NCBI GenBank assembly: GCA_001563335.1 | Contig: LRSL01000008.1 | Location: 1 to 25,547 of the forward strand | DNA from: Candidatus Thorarchaeota archaeon SMTZ1-45 | GTDB taxonomy: Archaea; Asgardarchaeota; Thorarchaeia; Thorarchaeales; Thorarchaeaceae | Reading direction: 5' to 3' | DNA: 25,547 bases | Made by a program: the position numbers and the translations under genes | In this document: positions 5,535-17,463 of the stretch, piece by piece | Position numbering within the stretch: the stretch's first letter is position 1 | How the letters are laid out: the number at the start of each line of letters is the position of its first letter | The notes under the pieces: generated by a model | Told to the model about the DNA's origin: nothing | Database searches by the model: none | Seen by the model: the letters and a program-made list of their open reading frames with translations, nothing else

Positions 5535-6755
5535 TCATAAACCTCTCAAGTGTTCTAGGATTCTGTTCTTCGCTGATTTCGGAGTGACATTATTGACTGA
5601 GATTTCCTCCACATTGTGAAACTCTCTAAACTTATGAATTCCTTTTGCCAGCCTATCTAAACCTGTTCTCTCCTTCCAAAAATCATCTTCAAGATACAAT
5701 GAGATTAACTCAAGTCGATTTTCATTTCGGTATACTTTCGCATCTGCCCTGGCAACTATATTAGATCCATCGAGAATAGGAAGAACATGATATCCATATT
5801 TTCGCTTGTCTGGAGGAACATAAGATTCCAGTTTGTAATCAAATTCCCAAATTTTGAGAGGGTAATGTCGCTCCCGGATGATATTATCAAATGGACTAAG
5901 AAATTTGACTGGATCTTCAGACAGATTTGCTTCCATCCTCTCCAAACTCTTAACCTTCTTACTCAACATGTAATAATGTTCTTTGATGCCATCAATCTTC
6001 ACTTGCTCCAAATTTCCCTCTCTAACAAGTGTATCCAGATGGCCTTCAATTGCAGATTTCTGATTATTCCATAGATACTCAGCTGGCCATCGTCCCAGAT
6101 ATGACCGGATGTCCAGAAAATTTCCCAATCCCAGAGAACCGAGAGTGGTTTCCACTACGAACCTAGCAAGCTCAGAGGTTTCCATTGGAGTTGAGTCGAT
6201 ATGAGATGGAAGTACCCTCTCTGTCAAATCATAGAACTTCTGAAAATTTGTCCTAAATGCTATCATAATCTGTCCTGTGTAATGGAGATACTGCATCGAC
6301 CTGCTCTCTAGAGACCCTCCCCACCCAAGATTCTCTCCTTTGAAATCTGAACTAGAAGTCAGTCCGTTCTTTTTGATATACTTGTAGACTTCCTGAATAG
6401 TTACTTTCATTTTCTCCCCGAATCTCTCATAGTATCCTTTTGTTGATGATCTATTGTGTTCCATTTTTCTCGCATAGAAAGGATAGGTTTCAATAGGAAC
6501 CAAACACAATGAATGTGACCAGTATTCGAAGAGCTTGCTTTTCTTCAGATCTTTCCATACGTCGCCTTCTCTATATTGTTCATATCTGTTGAAAGTAGTC
6601 AGGTTATGACTTCTTGATACTACAGACATTGTATCGATTTGTATACTATGAATCCTCTTGGCTACATTCATAACTGACCTTGAAGGCTTCTGCGTTCGAA
6701 GTCCTTGAACATCCAGAATGAATCTTCTTGCTATATTGGAAGAAATTTCTATCAT
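5535..6755 (-). CDS. ycaQ: YcaQ/AlkZ-family (HTH_42 winged-helix) crosslink-repair DNA glycosylase
   Basis: IQID catalytic QxD motif, VSRSH, LFEYWSH, YDLTERVLP, LSPFDNII, ESYVP..KRKYGY..LPIL; 406 aa. Confidence 0.9.
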   Translation of the reverse strand: MIEISSNIARRFILDVQGLRTQKPSRSVMNVAKRIHSIQIDTMSVVSRSHNLTTFNRYEQYREGDVWKDLKKSKLFEYWSHSLCLVPIETYPFYARKMEHNRSSTKGYYERFGEKMKVTIQEVYKYIKKNGLTSSSDFKGENLGWGGSLESRSMQYLHYTGQIMIAFRTNFQKFYDLTERVLPSHIDSTPMETSELARFVVETTLGSLGLGNFLDIRSYLGRWPAEYLWNNQKSAIEGHLDTLVREGNLEQVKIDGIKEHYYMLSKKVKSLERMEANLSEDPVKFLSPFDNIIRERHYPLKIWEFDYKLESYVPPDKRKYGYHVLPILDGSNIVARADAKVYRNENRLELISLYLEDDFWKERTGLDRLAKGIHKFREFHNVEEISVNNVTPKSAKNRILEHLRGL

Positions 6756-8807: not shown

Positions 8808-9845
8808 CTAGAATCGACTTCTCCTTTTGGGATATGGTGTGAAGTGCTTTCTTTGTTTGGTGCTGAACCATTCAGTTGAAGCATCAATATTCCTTAATGA
8901 CCGAAGAATATCAAATGAAACCCAACGACTAACCTCTGGGTGTGAAGAGTATTCCCAGAGTCCATACTGACCTTGCTGTTCTAGAATCCATTTCACAAGC
9001 TCATCAACTCTAGGGTCTTCTCGATTAGCACCTACCCTTGAACAGATGTCTAGAACTAATGATGGATCGAATTTAGCATGATATGTGAGACCACCTCGAT
9101 GTGGCTCTACACCAATATATCTGGCGACATTGAATCCAAGATTGTTGCGGTCTCTTGTTTCTCTTCCAAGAAGATGGTCTAACGCTTCTCGTGCTTCAGT
9201 GCTATTGTTACGTTTTGGATGATATGCGAAACAAAGCAGCGACTGAGTTGTATTGGTCCTGCAACCCCATTGAGAGTATGGCAGTCTTCTGTATCCTGCA
9301 ATTCCAACAAAGACATCTTTGACCTTCCCTGCGGGCCATGTTCCATCTTCAAGGCGTACATTCAATAACCACTCAAACGCCCGCTCTGAACGAGAATCTT
9401 CCCCATATCCACACATCACTAATCCAAGAAGAGGAATTGAAGTTTGAACTGGAGACATAGTATACGGTCCTCGAGTATACTCATAATCAGCAACACGCTC
9501 AGGTAAAGGCCAAGAACCATCCTTCCTCTGTTTGGAAAAGATGTACTCTACTCCCCTTTTTATAGCTGGATGGTCATTGTTTAGTCCCAAATACCCTAAA
9601 CGCATAAGGGCTGCAGTTGTGGCTCGAATTGCCCCACCAATAGTATATCCTGCTTGATCTAGTTCTCTCCATTTTCCGCTCTCTTTCTGTAGATTGAGTA
9701 GTGATGTGATAATTGGATCTTCTTCTCTGAGTTTCACAAGTTCTTTTGCCTCGTTATCATCTGAATTACGACCAAGTAGCTCAGTCAACACCAAATATCG
9801 AAGACTTGGAGACCTGTCTGCTAACAAAAGTGGTACCCAAGTCAT
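8808..9845 (-). CDS. Prenyltransferase/squalene-hopene-cyclase (QW) repeat alpha-alpha toroid protein, function unknown
   Basis: Repeated QW-like motifs: LLNLQKESGKW, IFSKQRKDGSW, LLNVRLEDGTW, ILEQQGQYGLW. No DxDD cyclase motif is visible. The start overlaps the uvrA stop (ATGA at 9842-9845). Confidence 0.8.
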   Translation of the reverse strand: MTWVPLLLADRSPSLRYLVLTELLGRNSDDNEAKELVKLREEDPIITSLLNLQKESGKWRELDQAGYTIGGAIRATTAALMRLGYLGLNNDHPAIKRGVEYIFSKQRKDGSWPLPERVADYEYTRGPYTMSPVQTSIPLLGLVMCGYGEDSRSERAFEWLLNVRLEDGTWPAGKVKDVFVGIAGYRRLPYSQWGCRTNTTQSLLCFAYHPKRNNSTEAREALDHLLGRETRDRNNLGFNVARYIGVEPHRGGLTYHAKFDPSLVLDICSRVGANREDPRVDELVKWILEQQGQYGLWEYSSHPEVSRWVSFDILRSLRNIDASTEWFSTKQRKHFTPYPKRRSRF

Positions 9846-12800
9846 ATTCTTCCCTCCAGGATCCCTTTGATGTATGGGGATGTTGGTGTATCCATTTTGG
9901 AGATTTCAATTGGATTGCCTTCTGCAATTACTAGACCACCTTCTGGCCCACCCTTTGGTCCGAGCTCAATTAGCCAATCACATGCAGCTAAAACATGGGG
10001 GTGGTGTTCAATCACAAATACACTGTTCCCCTCAGACACCAGCTGATGCAAGACTTGAACTAATCGATTGACATCTTCAAGATGCTGACCTACAGTTGGT
10101 TCATCAAGAATGAAGAGCGTCCCTCGTTGTGATTTCTTGGTTAGTTCTTGAGCTATTTTGAGTCTTTGAATCTCACCGCCTGATAGTGTCCAACTTGGCT
10201 GTCTAAGGACAAGGTAGTCTAATCCAACATCCAATGCAGGACGAAGTTTGGTTTCAACTCTCTCTTCGTCTTTGAATAGCTCATAGATCTCTTTCAGAGT
10301 AAGATTATTCAATTCTGGGAGGGAATAGCCCTTAACCATCACATCCCAAGCTTCAGGGGATCGACCACTTCCAGCACATACTTCACACTCTGTGTAAACT
10401 GTCGGTAGGAACCCAAGATCTGTCCGCAACCTCCCAGCTCCCTCGCAGATTGAGCAGGGTTGACTTAACTTCTTCTTGTCAAGATCAAGTGAGATTGCAT
10501 CCTCGCTTTCAGCGTAAACATCAACAAGGACCCTTAGAATATCTAGCGCTTGACCAGGTGAGCGAATACCCTTTCGACCTTGATCGAGAACTATGACTCT
10601 ATTGGGTTCATTCCTTATGCTGTCATATTCTTCTGGCTCAGTTTCCTCATATGCTACACTCGTTGTGAATTTCTTGGGGGCTATTGCACGAGCTAGAGTA
10701 TCAATAAGCAACGTACTCTTCCCAGATCCTGATACTCCGCAAAAACCAACGAGAACACCTAGAGGTATCTCAAGAGTTACATTTTGTAGATTATTGCCTC
10801 TTGCTCCAACGATCTTCATCCATGCAATGGGTGTTCTTGGAGATGATGCGAAACTGAACCTTCTATCTCCTTTCAACCACTTTGCAGTTATTGAATCGGT
10901 CTTTGCTACAGCAGATGGACTTCCCTTAGCCACAATTCTACCTCCTTCTGTTCCTGCAACTGGACCCATGTCAATCAGCTCATCCGCAGCTTTAATGATT
11001 GCTAGATCATGTTCAACAACAATTGGAGTGTTCCCCTCAATCTTGAGCTCCTCAAGAGCATCCAAGAGCCCGTCCACCTCTGAGGGATGCATCCCGCGTG
11101 ATGGTTCATCTAATAGAATAGTCAGAGAAGTCATACCACTTCCTAACAAGCTGGATAAGATGATTCTCTGTGCTTCCCCTGCTGAAAGCGATAGTGCTGA
11201 TTGATTTAGATGAACATAACCAAGTCCAACCTGTTCGAGAAATCTTACACGTTTCAATGCAGTTTGCAAATTGTCTTGGGTGAAATATACATCTGAGTCT
11301 GGAACCTTGAGCTTTAGGAGAATCTTTCTCAATTCTGAAATTGTACAGTTTTTCAGCTGATGTACATTCTGACCCAAGATTTTGAATGCTAGATAATCTT
11401 CCTTAAGACCCGTACCATTACAACATTCGCAGACAATGCGGTTACTGAAAGTCTGACCTACATCCCAATCATTTACAAGTCTATAGAATCCCCACCAAGC
11501 TTGCTTACCAGAAACCTTTGTCCTCTTTCCTCTGCGAGTTCCAAGATATGAGAATTCAAGCTTTTCAGAATCTCCATACAGGAAGGCTCTCTTTCCTTCC
11601 TCTGAGATGTCCTTCCAAGGTGTTGTTTGAGGATCAAATCCATACTTATTACCAAGAGCTATAAGCAATCCTGCAGCCGCACTAGTTGGCTCACAGAAGT
11701 ATTTTCCGGGATAATAACCTGGAGAATACATCGCTCCTAGGCATAGTGGTTTTTCAGGTGCAATAATGAGTTTCTCTGGTGCAGGAATGTTCTTTGTTCC
11801 AACTCCACTACACTCGCTACAAGCAGCATAATATGTGGTCGCGGAGAAAGCACGGGGACTGACTAAGGGTTTTGTTGTTCCACATTTTGGGCAACTCCAC
11901 CTTTCATTCCGCTCCATTCGGGTTCCACAATCAAGACATAGTCTTTCTGCGATTGCCGCGTATAGGACATTGATATGATTGGAAATCTCTGTGACAGTTC
12001 CTACTTTGGACCGACTTTCATAAACTGCCCACCATCCAGCGCCTCTCCTTCGTCTTGAAGAAATCGCTATTGATACTCCCAGACCACTCACGCTGTCTAC
12101 TGGGGCTTCGGGTCCTTCACTTGTTCCCTGGCGCTCATATACTGAAAGCGACTCCAAGAACCTTCTCTCTGCCTCTGCTTGCAATACATCTCTAATGAGT
12201 GATGATTTGCCTGATCCTGAAATCCCTGTGACCACTGTCAGCTTTGCTTTCTTGATATCTACACTCACCGACTTCAAATTGTTGGCTCTTGCGTTCTTTA
12301 TAGAAATCCTATCCGCCCGAATGTTTGTCTTCCCAGGTTGTTTTCGAGGTTTTACTTTCTTCTCATTTTCTAGTGCCTGTGCAGTTTGTGATACTTTGAC
12401 AGCATAGATTCCTGTTGGTGGTCCACAGTATAATACCTCACCACCATCAGGACCTGCTGAGGGACCAAGGTCAATGAGCCAGTCAGCAGATTTTATGATG
12501 TCAGTATTATGTTCAATAACTACAATTGTTGCTCCTTCTTTGACAAGTCTATCAAGAACCGAGAGCAGACCAAACAAATCGTATGGATGAAGACCTGTTG
12601 AAGGTTCATCTAGAATAAGGAGTTTAGATGATAGTGATTTCTTCCCCAAGTATTTGGCCAATTTTATCCTCTGTGCCTCACCCCCAGAAAGACTCGGAGA
12701 GCTCTGACCTAACTTCAGATAACCAAGTCCAATGGTGACAAGCGCATCTAGAATACTCTCTACCGACTTTCTCTTGCTCTCTGAGAGACGTGTATCTTGT

Positions 12801-14731
12801 GTAAGAATCGAATGGACTTCAGAGATTGATAAGTTGTAGAAATCTGCTATGGATAAATCTCGTTCTTTGAATTTAATCCGAGATTGAAGCACCTCTTCAT
12901 TATACCTCTGACCATCACAATCTGAACATGTAATCCAAATTGATGGAAGATAACGCATCTTGACTTCAACAGCTCCCATCCCTTGGCATGTGGGACAAGC
13001 TCCTTCAGGTCGATTGAACGAGAAGTGTGAAGCCGAGAGACCAGTTTCAGAAGCATAGAGGTCTCTAATGATGTCAGAGAGTTTTGTATACGTACCTGGA
13101 TTTGACCTGGGATTCTTGCCTATAGGTTTCTGATCGACCATTACTGGTCTGAGCTTCTTTCCCTCAATTGATTTGCATCCAACTGGTTTACCAGTTTCAA
13201 GTGTGGGCACAAGTACGTGTTGAACTAGTGTACTCTTCCCAGACCCGCTGACTCCTGTGATTACAGTAAGTCTACTCACTGGCATGTCTACAGAAATCTC
13301 TTTCAGATTGTGCTTGGTTGCACCACTAATCCTGATGAACTCATCAGGTTCTGGGTGAGACTTCAGAGTGGGTACATGTTCTCTCAGACTGAAATAGTGA
13401 CCTGTTTTTGTGTCAGCTTTCCAAAGCCCCTGGGGCGTACCAGTGAAGACAATCTTCCCTCCATTGTCACCTGCTTCTGGTCCTAGATCAATCACTCTGT
13501 CTGCATGAGACGCAGCAACTCTGTCATGTTCAACAAAAACAACCGGACCAAGCAGCTTTCTAAATGAAGGCATTAGCTTTGCAACATCTGCTGGGTGTTG
13601 TCCAATTGTTGGTTCATCCAATACATGTACAATATCTTCGAGTCTGCTAGTCAAAGAAATTGCTAATCGTACTCTCTGCGATTCTCCTCGAGACAGTGAT
13701 GGTGAAGACCTGTCCAGTTGAATATATCCAAGTCCAACAGTCATGAGTGCTTCAATTCTTCGGGAAATCTCAGACTTCAACCTCTTTGCAGTCGTAGGGA
13801 GTTGGACATTATTGAAGATGTCATGAACTTCTGAAACTGTCAATGTAAGCAACTCTGGAAAGGACCTTCCCTCCCATAGAACATTAGCAGCCATTTGATG
13901 TAATCCTGAGTGGTTGCATTTTTCGCAACCTTTGCCCTCACAATGAATACACTTCATCCCAAAATGCTTAGATTCAACATTGCTAAACCAAGTCCCACAT
14001 TGAGAACATACACTACTCAAAGATAGGTTTCTAGATGTATCATTATAACTAACCAATACAGAGTCAGAACCCAATTCATATGCCTTTCTAATCGAATCCC
14101 GAACTTCTGAGGTTCTTGATTTTGAATCAAATCTACCCAATAGAATAGAGATATCATGTGGTTCTTCCGAAATCAGGTCCTTCCTGTCCCATGGAACTCC
14201 ATCAACTAAAACCCTCTCAGATCCAAATTCATCTACGAGTAGTTCCAAGAGCATTTTGTGGCTCCCTTTCACAGATTGAACGAGAGATGAAGCGACCTCA
14301 ACTCTTGTCCTTCTCAATTTCTCATTGATAAGCGATATTATCTCATCCTCAGTCAAGACTTGGAGACTTGCGCCACAGGTCACACAGTAACGAATACCAA
14401 ATCTTGCATAAAGGAGTCTGAAGAAGGGATGCAAACCGGATGCTGATGCAAGCGTTGATAGAGGATTCAAATTGAGAAGGTTCTGTTCCACTGCTATTGT
14501 GGGGCCTATGCCTGTGAGAGATCGGACATTGGCTGGAGGCATGCGAACCCTAGAACTGCTTGATCTAAAGACATCCAAAAACCTGCGACGAGCCTCATGA
14601 TACATCGTATCAAAAACAAGTGATGTCTTTCCCGATCCACTTATGCCTGTCACAACAGTTAGACCATCAGCTATGTCCACATCCACTGATTTGAGATTGT
14701 TCTCACGGGCACCTCGGATTCGGATATCCAT
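9842..14731 (-). CDS. uvrA: Double-length (tandem-fused) UvrA-family excinuclease ABC ATPase with four ABC ATPase domains
   Basis: Four GAxxNNL-type starts, four Walker A motifs (GISGSGKT, GVSGSGKS, GISGSGKS, GVSGSGKS), four signatures (LSRGESQ, LSGGEAQ, LSAGEAQ, LSGGEIQ), four LDEP motifs and UvrA Zn-finger CxxC pairs. The second unit starts near aa 808 (nt about 12310). Confidence 0.95.
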   Translation of the reverse strand: MDIRIRGARENNLKSVDVDIADGLTVVTGISGSGKTSLVFDTMYHEARRRFLDVFRSSSSRVRMPPANVRSLTGIGPTIAVEQNLLNLNPLSTLASASGLHPFFRLLYARFGIRYCVTCGASLQVLTEDEIISLINEKLRRTRVEVASSLVQSVKGSHKMLLELLVDEFGSERVLVDGVPWDRKDLISEEPHDISILLGRFDSKSRTSEVRDSIRKAYELGSDSVLVSYNDTSRNLSLSSVCSQCGTWFSNVESKHFGMKCIHCEGKGCEKCNHSGLHQMAANVLWEGRSFPELLTLTVSEVHDIFNNVQLPTTAKRLKSEISRRIEALMTVGLGYIQLDRSSPSLSRGESQRVRLAISLTSRLEDIVHVLDEPTIGQHPADVAKLMPSFRKLLGPVVFVEHDRVAASHADRVIDLGPEAGDNGGKIVFTGTPQGLWKADTKTGHYFSLREHVPTLKSHPEPDEFIRISGATKHNLKEISVDMPVSRLTVITGVSGSGKSTLVQHVLVPTLETGKPVGCKSIEGKKLRPVMVDQKPIGKNPRSNPGTYTKLSDIIRDLYASETGLSASHFSFNRPEGACPTCQGMGAVEVKMRYLPSIWITCSDCDGQRYNEEVLQSRIKFKERDLSIADFYNLSISEVHSILTQDTRLSESKRKSVESILDALVTIGLGYLKLGQSSPSLSGGEAQRIKLAKYLGKKSLSSKLLILDEPSTGLHPYDLFGLLSVLDRLVKEGATIVVIEHNTDIIKSADWLIDLGPSAGPDGGEVLYCGPPTGIYAVKVSQTAQALENEKKVKPRKQPGKTNIRADRISIKNARANNLKSVSVDIKKAKLTVVTGISGSGKSSLIRDVLQAEAERRFLESLSVYERQGTSEGPEAPVDSVSGLGVSIAISSRRRRGAGWWAVYESRSKVGTVTEISNHINVLYAAIAERLCLDCGTRMERNERWSCPKCGTTKPLVSPRAFSATTYYAACSECSGVGTKNIPAPEKLIIAPEKPLCLGAMYSPGYYPGKYFCEPTSAAAGLLIALGNKYGFDPQTTPWKDISEEGKRAFLYGDSEKLEFSYLGTRRGKRTKVSGKQAWWGFYRLVNDWDVGQTFSNRIVCECCNGTGLKEDYLAFKILGQNVHQLKNCTISELRKILLKLKVPDSDVYFTQDNLQTALKRVRFLEQVGLGYVHLNQSALSLSAGEAQRIILSSLLGSGMTSLTILLDEPSRGMHPSEVDGLLDALEELKIEGNTPIVVEHDLAIIKAADELIDMGPVAGTEGGRIVAKGSPSAVAKTDSITAKWLKGDRRFSFASSPRTPIAWMKIVGARGNNLQNVTLEIPLGVLVGFCGVSGSGKSTLLIDTLARAIAPKKFTTSVAYEETEPEEYDSIRNEPNRVIVLDQGRKGIRSPGQALDILRVLVDVYAESEDAISLDLDKKKLSQPCSICEGAGRLRTDLGFLPTVYTECEVCAGSGRSPEAWDVMVKGYSLPELNNLTLKEIYELFKDEERVETKLRPALDVGLDYLVLRQPSWTLSGGEIQRLKIAQELTKKSQRGTLFILDEPTVGQHLEDVNRLVQVLHQLVSEGNSVFVIEHHPHVLAACDWLIELGPKGGPEGGLVIAEGNPIEISKMDTPTSPYIKGILEGRI

Positions 14732-14869: not shown

Positions 14870-15568
14870 ATGGAAGAAAAGGAATTCGTTGCTTTCATGA
14901 AGAAGGAAAGAAAGAGTGATAGCACTATAGCTGCATGCCTTAATGACATTATGGAGTTTGAAACTTATCTTGAACAGAAAGGAACATCTCTAGTCAAAGC
15001 TATACCTTCTGACCTAGAGTCATTCGCTCAAGACTACAAAAACAAGAAACGAACATCCAAGCTCATGTGGACCCTCAGTCATTTCTTTGAATTCATTGAT
15101 AACAAGGAGCTATTATTTACAGCAAGAAAAATCAGAAAGGGCAAGATTAAGGCAACAAGGAAACCTTTCAAGATCAAGGATTTTAGAGGTATAAACTCTG
15201 AACATGCAATCAAACTAGCTGAAATTGGTATTGATAATGTTGCTAAGATGCTCGAGGTTGGAAAGACCTCTGAGATGAGACTAAAATTATCCAAGCAAAC
15301 TGGTCTAAACATCAAGATAATTGAGGAAATTGTGAAGCTCTCTGATCTTGCACGAATACAAGGTCTCAAGGGCATTCGTGCTCGCTTATATTATAATGCA
15401 GGCTTTGATTTCTTGGAGAAACTACGTCAGACTTCACCTGAAGAGCTACTTCAAATCACAAGAGAGTTTGTTGAGAGGACTGGCTTTGATGGAATCGCTC
15501 CACTGCCAAAAGAAGCAAAAGGAGCGATTGAAGCAGCAAAGAAACTACCAGACATAATTGAATGGTAA
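14870..15568 (+). CDS. DUF4332-like helix-hairpin-helix protein with an N-terminal integrase SAM-like domain
   Basis: N-terminal KS.STIAA.LNDI.EFE.YL resembles the tyrosine-recombinase core-binding domain. C-terminal tandem HhH segments FKIKDFRGINSEHAIKLAEIGI and SDLARIQGLKGIRARLYYNAGF. No catalytic recombinase domain. Confidence 0.7.
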   Translation: MEEKEFVAFMKKERKSDSTIAACLNDIMEFETYLEQKGTSLVKAIPSDLESFAQDYKNKKRTSKLMWTLSHFFEFIDNKELLFTARKIRKGKIKATRKPFKIKDFRGINSEHAIKLAEIGIDNVAKMLEVGKTSEMRLKLSKQTGLNIKIIEEIVKLSDLARIQGLKGIRARLYYNAGFDFLEKLRQTSPEELLQITREFVERTGFDGIAPLPKEAKGAIEAAKKLPDIIEW

Positions 15569-16003: not shown

Positions 16004-16122
16004 AAAGCTCCCTCTTGTAATTTGTCAAAAAACCTCCTTTTTACACCACCGGATATTCTTTGTTGGAAAGAATCATTAAGACCAATCGCTTGCTTTCTTG
16101 CCATTTCATGGTGGGAAACTTG

Positions 16123-16701
16123 ATGACACCAAGTCCAAAGGCAATAGCTATAGAAACTCTTGAAATCGCAGAATCGAATTTGCTAAATTCATTCATGGGT
16201 GTTCGTCCAGACGAAATCCATGAACAAGCGCATCCCGAGTTCAACTCTATCATATGGATCTTGGGACACTGCTTCACTCATTTCCATTTAGTCCTTTGCA
16301 GCAAATGTCAAGAAACTGAAATATTCACTGAGGATATAGCACACTATTTCAGATTTGGTACAACGAAAGAGGAGATTTCAAAGACTGGTCCTCCTATGAC
16401 ATTTGCCAAGCTCATCGACGAGTATCTCAAGATCTCAGCTTCAGGTTTCTCCTATCTTCAATCAATCGATGATGAGGACCTTGAGAAGGTTATATTTCCA
16501 GAGTATGGTGAGAATCTATTGCAGAGTATCCAACGAATAGGACTGCATTATATGGGTCATGTAGGACAGATTGTTTTGATTCGCAGGGCTTTGGGAAATC
16601 CTGGTGCCACCTTCGTTGGAGGAATTTCTTCAATCGGTCGTTCGAAGATACGAGAAAAATGGGATAAATGGTGGTCTGAGAACAGAAACGATTTTGAGTA
16701 A
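16123..16701 (+). CDS. DinB_2-family protein
   Basis: NSIIWILGH and HYMGHVGQI..IRRALG motifs. The ORF track starts at 16060; ATG 16123 with a GGTGG RBS is more plausible. Confidence 0.82.
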   Translation: MTPSPKAIAIETLEIAESNLLNSFMGVRPDEIHEQAHPEFNSIIWILGHCFTHFHLVLCSKCQETEIFTEDIAHYFRFGTTKEEISKTGPPMTFAKLIDEYLKISASGFSYLQSIDDEDLEKVIFPEYGENLLQSIQRIGLHYMGHVGQIVLIRRALGNPGATFVGGISSIGRSKIREKWDKWWSENRNDFE

Positions 16702-16875: not shown

Positions 16876-17463
16876 ATGCGCGACCAAGATGATGGCAGCA
16901 AAATCATGAAAGCTGTTCTCATAGGTGATGGGGCTGTTGGTAAGACAAGCATACGCCGCAATTACCTTGGTGAGGATTTTATTGAGGGGCATCTAGCAAC
17001 AATAGGTGTAGACCTAGCTACAAAACGGGTTTTGTTTGGGCAAGATATTGTCAAGTTCATAATTTGGGATCTTGCCGGACAACCAACATTTGAGAAAGTC
17101 CGAGGACACTACTATAGCGGGTGTAATGGGATACTCTTGGTATACTCAGTAGTTGATAGAGAGTCCTTTGATAATGCTAGTAAATGGTTGGTTGAAGCCT
17201 ACAAGAATATGGGTCCCTTACCACCTACTGTAATCATTGGGAATAAGATTGACCTTCGACAGAGCCTGGACAAGACTAAATATGTAACGACAGAAGAAGG
17301 CGAAGCATTCACAAAGTACTTCATAGAGAAACTTGAGGTTCCTGCAATATTCAGAGAAACCTCAGCAAAGACTGGTGCAAATATCCAAGACACTTTCCAA
17401 GAACTTCTACGAATGATGAGTGAGGCTGAAACAAAGAAGGAAAGAGACATTTTCATGGGCTAA
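16876..17463 (+). CDS. Rab-like small GTPase (Ras superfamily)
   Basis: G1 GDGAVGKT, G2/RabF1-like TIGVD, G3 WDLAGQ, RabF4-like YYSG, G4 NKID, G5 ETSAK. No C-terminal Cys. Confidence 0.93.
   Translation: MRDQDDGSKIMKAVLIGDGAVGKTSIRRNYLGEDFIEGHLATIGVDLATKRVLFGQDIVKFIIWDLAGQPTFEKVRGHYYSGCNGILLVYSVVDRESFDNASKWLVEAYKNMGPLPPTVIIGNKIDLRQSLDKTKYVTTEEGEAFTKYFIEKLEVPAIFRETSAKTGANIQDTFQELLRMMSEAETKKERDIFMG

Follow-up and report, generated by a model that had tools for sequence, protein, structure and literature searches.

Gene and Domain Organization of the Locus

The window analyzed here, i.e., the whole 25,547 nucleotide (nt) stretch at positions 1 to 25,547 of contig LRSL01000008.1 (assembly GCA_001563335.1) from Candidatus Thorarchaeota archaeon SMTZ1-45, encodes a double-length UvrA in a single open reading frame (ORF) and, directly downstream, a small protein with an alpha/alpha-toroid fold (Table 1). 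Four sequencing runs contain the stretch, all of DNA from marine sediment or seawater with one being perhaps the source sample, and no RNA run was listed.

Each half of the fused UvrA comprises two ATP-binding cassette (ABC) modules, with Walker A boxes at amino acids (aa) 29, 493, 836, and 1332, and the chain carries 12 CxxC motifs corresponding to three zinc modules of CxxC pairs per half. When the halves (aa 1-807 and aa 808-1629) were aligned with both canonical UvrAs of the same genome (P0002, 981 aa, and P0003, 952 aa; 37-38% identity to the halves), complementary losses emerged. Half 1 occupied the columns of the UvrB-binding domain and had one long gap over the whole insertion domain, with zinc module 2 closing directly (CIHC-EGKG-CEKC) at the site of this roughly 130-aa domain. 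Half 2 had its gap over the UvrB-binding domain, retaining zinc module 1 with an 11-residue loop where that domain would be, and occupied the insertion-domain columns. The Pfam profile PF17760 (UvrA_inter) matched half 1 only (aa 127-231, profile positions 2-109 of 109, 34.4 bits with a cut-off of 23.3) and PF17755 (UvrA_DNA-bind) matched half 2 only (aa 1019-1070, profile positions 29-78 of 110, 24.4 bits with a cut-off of 23.2). The half 1 arm aligned to residues 128-276 of Ct-UvrA and was homologous to the UvrB-binding domain over its full length. An AlphaFold2 (AF2) model of half 1 built from 17 relatives (predicted local distance difference test, pLDDT, 86.4; predicted template modeling score, pTM, 0.78) had its best structural match in 3uwx_A, the UvrA of the UvrA-UvrB crystal (template modeling score, TM, by query 0.88; root-mean-square deviation, rmsd, 3.5). 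The models TIGR00630 (1273.1 bits, cut-off 729.8) and NF001503 (1276.7 bits, cut-off 1147) also matched the fused UvrA, both scores being the sum of four stretches from both halves.

The initial annotation of the window, made from the sequence alone, had described half 1 as keeping the UvrB-binding domain without the insertion domain and half 2 as keeping the insertion domain without the UvrB-binding domain, with which both alignment and Pfam agreed. The motif positions given there were all exact, namely CVTC (aa 116), CSQC (242), CIHC (261), CEKC (269), CLDC (932), CPKC (947), CSEC (971), and CECC (1101), and the DQxPIGxxPRSNP motif was intact in half 1 (DQ..RSNP, aa 533-545) and degenerate in half 2, as had been claimed. 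The pseudo-heterodimer proposed on this basis stands in its anatomy, with one protein-docking arm and one DNA-clamping arm conserved across the family described below. The two halves would pair within the chain, as the existence of single-chain forms suggests.

Table 1. Positions of the gene pair and of the features of the fused UvrA in the window (Lys, lysine; Gln, glutamine).
Feature	Position	Strand	Basis
Alpha/alpha-toroid partner coding sequence (P0244), 345 aa	8808..9845	-	Pfam, AF2, fold matches, linkage
ATGA overlap of UvrA stop and partner start	9842..9845	-	Sequence
Fused double UvrA coding sequence (P0001)	9842..14731	-	Single ORF, 1629 aa, stop codon included
Half 2 of fused UvrA, aa 808-1629	9845..12310	-	Alignment and Pfam
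DQGRKGIRSPG, aa 1383-1393, half 2 signature-II region	10553..10585	-	Shortened, degenerate DQxPIGxxPRSNP
Half 2 insertion (DNA-clamping) domain, aa 975-1100	11432..11809	-	PF17755 and alignment
CLDC-x11-CPKC, aa 932-950, zinc module 1 of half 2	11882..11938	-	Motif scan and alignment
Degenerate Q-loop region of half 2 module I, aa 885-912, with 7-aa insertion and without Gln	11996..12079	-	Alignment, 116 relatives
Y865-E-R-Q868-G869, single surviving copy of the UvrA "wedge"	12125..12139	-	Walker A Lys +23/+26
Linker between the halves, aa 786-807	12311..12376	-	Mean majority frequency 0.42 vs. 0.69-0.81 for ATPase modules
Half 1 of fused UvrA, aa 1-807	12311..14731	-	Alignment, AF2 model, structural match
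CIHC-EGKG-CEKC, aa 261-272, zinc module 2 of half 1	13916..13951	-	Motif scan and alignment
Half 1 arm (UvrB-binding-domain homologue), aa 117-241; predicted toroid docking site	14009..14383	-	PF17760, complex prediction

Conservation and Phylogeny of the Fused UvrA Family

A protein search with a word index listed 119 relatives of 1300-1689 aa that were 55-80% identical along the entire sequence. Their names indicated Thorarchaeota, Lokiarchaeota, Bathyarchaeota, Chloroflexi/Anaerolineae, and Desulfatiglandales. All 12 CxxC motifs were present at matching spacings in 117 of the 120 proteins (query counted), and the other three were N-terminally cut fragments. The four diagnostic spacings in these 117 proteins were about 122-128 and 8 in half 1 followed by 15-16 and 125-144 in half 2, the fused UvrA of the window having 126/8 and 15/130. 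The same domain pattern was kept in all 24 metagenome copies with a complete upstream frame. The spacing of 8 in zinc module 2 of half 1 was found in every full-length relative from the database and the metagenomes, and that of zinc module 1 of half 2 was 15-16 in database relatives and 15-21 in metagenome copies. Such conservation (117/120 proteins and 24/24 copies) shows that the architecture is neither a product of chance nor an assembly artefact. Scanning species genomes identified 28 loci of the fused UvrA from Thor-, Prometh-, and Hermodarchaeota, Bathyarchaeia, Theionarchaea, Anaerolineae/Chloroflexia, and one gammaproteobacterial genome.

A quick phylogeny of 54 rows of UvrA halves (FastTree) placed 14 first halves in one clade and 14 second halves in another, each with a support of 100, on long stems (0.91 and 0.67, respectively) and with parallel inner branching. 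Canonical UvrAs and the halves of other fusions clustered apart from both clades. The two supported clades with parallel branching indicate that the fusion with its complementary losses is old and had a single origin. In a second tree, half 1 and half 2 grouped together against canonical UvrAs with a support of 97, and as both branches are long, no conclusion on the origin of the halves was drawn from it. The family constitutes a distinct and conserved UvrA class that is apparently undescribed, and it would be a distinct class without a name even if the toroid were a mere structural accessory. Its members are currently annotated as "excinuclease ABC subunit A" or "ABC domain protein," and full-text literature searches found neither a double UvrA with complementary deletions nor a UvrA-toroid pair, while older class schemes might name a duplicated class.

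A few members and relatives deviated from the common form. One metagenome copy (L119) had 196 residues instead of about 126 between the cysteine pairs of half 1 zinc module 1, i.e., an arm insertion of ~70 aa. In two Chloroflexia assemblies (L035 6001-12021 and L036 6001-10904) the fused uvrA was spread across several frames and partly duplicated in the former, which may reflect sequencing indels or decaying copies. A search for shorter relatives identified many half 1-like proteins of 789-891 aa, most of which look cut or frame-shifted. Two proteins had a C-terminal part like that of canonical UvrA. P0395 (789 aa, 75% identical) fell within the half 1 clade and the 797-aa P0444 was the sister of that clade; both may have arisen by natural recombination, as split forms, or from chimeric assembly.

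The Toroid Partner Gene

By tblastn, 23 of the 28 genome loci had the partner gene directly downstream of the fused UvrA, and the remaining five ended at a contig edge within 26 nt of the truncated UvrA match. The stop and start codons overlapped in the same 4-nt ATGA in 17 of 19 genome loci, as well as in 22 of the 24 from metagenomes. Scanning metagenomes with an alignment of the partner gave 339 relatives, of which 80 were kept. Of 68 metagenome loci with 400 nt or more upstream, 67 had a UvrA frame ending beside the partner (the exception, L110, had a UvrA match at another spacing), and a complete double UvrA was present in all 24 with at least 5 kb upstream. The pairing of the fused UvrA and the toroid gene is obligate. 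No conserved neighbor was found beyond the pair, as 42 flanking ORFs at 11 loci were unrelated housekeeping genes, and the other genes of the window were conserved in close Thorarchaeota relatives only.

The partner gave a partial match to the Pfam family SQHop_cyclase_C (E 1.5e-12), and its AF2 model, built from 20 relatives (pLDDT 86.7, pTM 0.87), displayed an alpha/alpha toroid. Foldseek matches included the squalene-hopene cyclase 2sqc (E 5.6e-6), the one-domain terpene cyclase MstE (6sbb, TM 0.49), and complement thioester domains. With VIA-align the partner matched 1gsz (Z 15.2, rmsd 4.3, 245 residues aligned), thioester domains (Z about 14), sugar epimerases (about 13-14), and lanthipeptide cyclases (about 12), and a wide structural search revealed a generic toroid with no DNA-related match. 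The protein has in common with the (alpha/alpha)6 toroids, such as squalene-hopene cyclase, MstE, and the complement thioester domain, both the fold and QxxDGxW-type repeats. It differs from these families in being a single small toroid with a strongly conserved N-terminus (MTWxPLLLADxSPxLRxLVL), of which the helix pair is predicted to bind UvrA, and a conserved basic tail (YPKRxKRF). Its assignment as a squalene-hopene or other class II terpene cyclase was rejected, since the DxDD motif was not found in its 345 residues and it scored far below the cut-offs of TIGR01507 (40.1 bits, cut-off 431.1) and TIGR01787 (41.3 bits, cut-off 322.7). To our knowledge, no member of the toroid cyclase and thioester families acts with a DNA-repair ATPase. 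A search among representatives identified 718 proteins at E <= 1e-3 and 45 at E <= 1e-30; all of the latter had at most 378 aa, so that the partner belongs to a small family without fused forms. Three paralogues were present in the same genome, with 26-30% identity and surrounded by unrelated genes.

A two-gene module with apparent translational coupling that occurs in unrelated hosts, both archaea and bacteria, and among unrelated neighbors could also be an anti-phage or anti-plasmid pair, with the UvrA-like ATPase sensing foreign or modified DNA and the toroid as the effector. PADLOC indeed gave matches of the fused UvrA to the MADS proteins mad3 (E 3.1e-107, eight stretches, 374-position profile) and mad8, but these were at the level of a single ABC module only and the partner matched no defense model. 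The flanks were moreover housekeeping genes and not defense islands or mobile elements, and neither Pfam nor fold searches identified nuclease, toxin, or membrane features in the partner, such that a role in defense is considered very improbable. A known anti-phage system was rejected, as the two proteins did not match models of one system in PADLOC.

Predicted Docking of the Toroid on the Half 1 Arm

Complex prediction was run on the entire partner together with the arm and its zinc stem (aa 105-285), using 17-row alignments with matching organism order. The interaction prediction score from aligned errors (ipSAE) was 0.85, 0.82, and 0.85 for the arm with the partner compared to 0.00 for the best of three controls, and the runs agreed in at least 72% of contacts with a partner pLDDT of at least 82. 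Among solved complexes, 116 of 157 attain the predictor's mark, compared to 2 of 215 mismatched pairs, a calibration that is rough here owing to the custom alignments. Predicted contacts involved aa 150-168, 188, 194, 218-222, and 239-248 of the arm and residues 4-42, 294-304, and 329-331 of the partner. As the fold of the partner is unlike that of UvrB domain 2, the docking is not a memory of the UvrA-UvrB interface by the predictor. Contact residues of the arm were also more conserved than its other residues (0.68 vs. 0.51, permutation p 0.0005). The prediction supports docking of the toroid partner on the half 1 arm.

Motif Asymmetry Between the Halves

Motif counts over 116 full-length relatives confirmed the Walker A Lys, Walker B glutamate, and H-loop histidine in all four ABC modules of every protein (116/116), and the signature serine/glycine in 115-116 of them. 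This agreed with the claim in the initial annotation of four intact ATPase sites, except for the Q-loop Gln, which was present in 116, 116, and 115 proteins in three modules and in none in module I of half 2, where proline (69) and serine (36) predominated in variable surroundings with an insertion. Many asymmetric ABC proteins have a regulatory or slow ATP site, and the absent Gln suggests one such site in half 2.

The wedge that is pushed into DNA was described in the part of the source consulted as Y62, Q65, and F66 of the C. thermocellum UvrA, with K39 as the Walker A Lys (PMC12796330). Its equivalent was conserved in half 2 as Y865 (tyrosine in 95 and phenylalanine in 21, i.e., aromatic in 116/116) and Q868 (Gln in 110/116), whereas no protein had an aromatic residue at the half 1 position (glycine 75, serine 22, and arginine 10 of 116 at the tyrosine position). 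The signature-II motif was likewise divided in the family consensus, half 1 conserving DQxPIGxNPRSNPxTY and half 2 having the shorter lDQ.r.GirsP. The arm was the least conserved folded part (0.53 vs. 0.69-0.81 for the ATPase modules) with a nearly constant length.

Comparison With Known UvrA Classes

Class I UvrAs (2r6f, 3uwx, 3pih, 3zqj, and 9gxk) have the same two ABC modules and three zinc modules as each half of the fused UvrA. Compared to them, the fused family has two units per chain with the docking arm, insertion domain, and wedge present once each, does not have one of the Q-loop Gln residues, and lies on long branches, and its gene is always paired with the toroid gene and not with uvrB.

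Class II UvrAs (UvrA2, DrrC, and Ecm16; 2vf7 and 7sh1) resemble half 2 in having no UvrB-binding domain, and the fused UvrA probably acts without UvrB. In the sections consulted, class II proteins were described as symmetric homodimers that have neither the UvrB-binding domain nor zinc module 1 (PMC10192343, PMC5128194). Half 2 differs from them in retaining zinc module 1, as does half 1 in having a docking arm and no insertion domain. The gene pair could have a class II-like function in protection from DNA-binding small molecules, in which the ATPase would detect DNA carrying a drug and free the compound and the toroid, with its terpenoid- or ligand-binding type of fold, capture or modify it. 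The missing UvrB-binding domain in half 2 is consistent with such a role, as is the precedent of Ecm16, which according to the portions of the reports consulted works without excision-repair proteins and requires its insertion domain (bioRxiv 10.1101/2022.02.02.478902; PMC10192343). The module is also self-contained and patchy across distant phyla, and the nearest folds to the partner have a central cavity for hydrophobic or sugar ligands. However, no conserved biosynthetic or transporter genes were found beside the pair, zinc module 1 of half 2 is missing from Ecm16 and UvrA2, the half 1 docking arm is absent from class II proteins, and no result points to a ligand. Drug protection is regarded as quite unlikely.

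Two further classes have a UvrA-UvrA tandem in a single chain, and the fused UvrA differs in architecture from both of these double-length types. The initial annotation had suggested a comparison with published double-length classes. The Chlamydia-type double UvrA (NF001885/PRK00635, 1809 positions) is the sole curated double-length model. Membership was rejected with a score of 835.7 bits against a cut-off of 3054, aa 3-240 and 267-933 of the fused UvrA mapping onto model positions 6-245 and 397-1059, respectively. The first half of the model, to which this comparison applies, has ~125 extra positions (the insertion domain) where half 1 has none. In addition, 120 longer relatives of canonical UvrA (1884-2383 aa) were listed from Isosphaeraceae, Tautonia, Paludisphaera, other Planctomycetes, Poribacteria, Heimdallarchaeota, and the "Asgard group," such that full tandem fusions occur in Asgard archaea as well. 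The fused UvrA was rejected as a member since that class keeps both long spacers (~130/130) in both halves (44 of the 45 parsed among the 120 listed), and the halves of full tandem fusions clustered with canonical UvrAs and not with the P0001 family. These proteins look like fused uvrA-uvrA pairs such as the canonical pair of the Thorarchaeota genome on contig C76. One member, P0162 (1906 aa), had only 15 residues between the cysteine pairs of zinc module 2 in its second half, from which partial domain loss may have occurred in fused UvrAs more than once.

The make-up of half 1 was also found in single-length UvrAs without the insertion domain (838-847 aa; the P0467-P0514 group) from Candidatus Saccharicenans and Aminicenantales, with CxxC motifs at 121, 251, 275, and 300, i.e., an arm spacing of 130 followed by 25 (21-residue loop). 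These proteins are unfused and fall among canonical UvrAs, their identity to half 1 being 35-38%. A group of Prevotella UvrAs (857-862 aa) lacked the cysteines of zinc module 1.

Proposed Surveillance Complex and Its Relation to UvrB and UvrC

Our preferred reading, held with moderate confidence, is that the gene pair forms an operon encoding an asymmetric complex for DNA surveillance in which the toroid takes the place of UvrB. The two UvrA units in one chain would share out the accessory parts of a dimer, with half 1 supplying the docking arm that holds one toroid protein and half 2 the clamp (insertion domain) and the wedge. The toroid gene would be translationally coupled to the fused uvrA and its product would dock on the arm via the conserved N-terminal helices. 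By homology to the UvrA dimer, the four ATPase modules may form a saddle binding and probing duplex DNA from a fixed orientation, with exactly one toroid copy presented to one side of the probed site and filling the role of UvrB in classical repair. The altered signature-II motif of half 2 would fit a re-tooling for a new partner. As the alpha/alpha-toroid fold usually encloses a small-molecule pocket, our guess is that the toroid would bind or process a nucleotide that is flipped out or adducted, or else a small molecule bound to DNA. DNA-damage sensing by the fused UvrA is our inference, as are any toroid activity and a function independent of UvrB/UvrC.

Several observations weigh against this reading. 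The support for docking is the model's own confidence score, and the predicted contact residues of the partner were not significantly more conserved than its other residues (0.74 vs. 0.68, p 0.12). The generic toroid fold gives the partner no chemistry and no known link to DNA. uvrB was clearly present in 19 of the 28 pair-carrying genomes, and six of the nine carriers without it had uvrC and/or canonical uvrA, some as contig-end fragments, their uvrB having probably been lost to contig breaks. Coexistence of the pair with UvrB (probably in 25 genomes) is the rule. The UvrB surface of the E. coli UvrA was defined by R216 and E222 in the part of the study consulted (PMC3025350), and R211 is a possible equivalent of R216 that is an arginine in 111 of 116 relatives, the alignment being uncertain here. 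In favor of independence from UvrBC, the three other carriers, which are all the Bathyarchaeia of the set (1.9-2.5 Mb assemblies of unstated completeness), had the fused gene and neither uvrB, uvrC, nor canonical uvrA. This is suggestive of such independence.

The presence of uvrB in most carriers and the conserved R211 would suit an excision-repair UvrA working with UvrB and UvrC, in which a single UvrB site and a single clamp would place one UvrB at a fixed side of the lesion, with the toroid as an accessory or unrelated protein. This alternative accounts for an arm homologous along its full length to the UvrB-binding domain and for a half 1 model nearest to the UvrA of the UvrA-UvrB complex. 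It is nevertheless considered unlikely, as the pair occurs without uvrB, uvrC, and canonical uvrA in the three Bathyarchaeia genomes, and the two genes are never apart. The arm, besides being confidently predicted to hold the toroid and least conserved, does not have the canonical RGRKGE stretch, and its position equivalent to E222 is not acidic (alanine, lysine, or threonine; alignment uncertain). Moreover, two canonical uvrA genes already accompany uvrB in the Thorarchaeota genome. The initial annotation had asked after a canonical uvrABC in this genome, which was found on contig C76 as uvrB (C76:27450-29396), two canonical uvrA genes in tandem (L001 1438-4383 and L002 1489-4347), and, ~3.7 kb further, uvrC (C76:38847-40568). 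The uvrA pair (981 and 952 aa, 50% identical) follows uvrB directly with a 4-nt stop/start overlap, which hints at a canonical UvrA heterodimer in lineages with such tandem pairs. With this separate uvrB-uvrA-uvrA-uvrC cluster, the arm predicted to bind the toroid, and three carriers without uvrB, the suggestion in the initial annotation of "at most one UvrB site" in the pseudo-heterodimer is not supported as written.

Beyond the surveillance complex with a toroid in place of UvrB, a UvrBC-independent surveillance pathway may be envisaged in Asgard archaea, Bathyarchaeia, Theionarchaea, and Chloroflexi in which the asymmetric UvrA would pass the probed site to a single toroid enzyme with a lesion or adduct chemistry new for this fold, although this extension is doubtful. 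If true, it would be a frozen natural version of the asymmetric intermediate thought to occur in symmetric UvrA dimers. How symmetry is broken between a symmetric UvrA dimer, one damaged strand, and one UvrB was presented as still debated in the portion consulted of PMC12796330.

The family is a natural dissection of UvrA with the docking arm, clamp, and wedge present once each and in a fixed order in more than 100 sequences, offering a ready-made construct for assigning the role of each part. An obligate toroid partner predicted at the usual dock of UvrB suggests that the UvrA scaffold was re-used to deliver another effector, in carriers that include the closest archaeal relatives of eukaryotes as well as some lineages without UvrBC. 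The MutS homodimer is a symmetric ABC-type DNA sensor that becomes asymmetric on DNA, an asymmetry hard-wired in the eukaryotic MSH2-MSH6. The likeness is a functional analogy only, as MutS belongs to another protein family and the division in MSH2-MSH6 is between two genes compared to within one chain here.

Neighboring Genes

Within 4 kb of the gene pair, the window encodes an AlkZ-like DNA glycosylase (5535-6755, reverse strand; PF06224, E 3.2e-38) and a DinB_2 protein (16060-16701, forward strand), found in four and three of the 28 loci, respectively, and recurring in close Thorarchaeota relatives only. Divergent from the fused uvrA is a gene for a 232-aa protein (14870-15568, forward strand; also L123 1416-2105, forward strand) with an integrase-type SAM-like N-terminus and a DUF4332/helix-hairpin-helix C-terminus, which recurs at five Thorarchaeota loci. 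A paralogue of this protein is encoded on contig C76 ~750 nt from a distant toroid paralogue, which is possibly a coincidence. A Ras-family small GTPase (16876-17463, forward strand; PF00071, E 6.1e-41) was 88-90% identical in four related loci and is typical of Asgard archaea.

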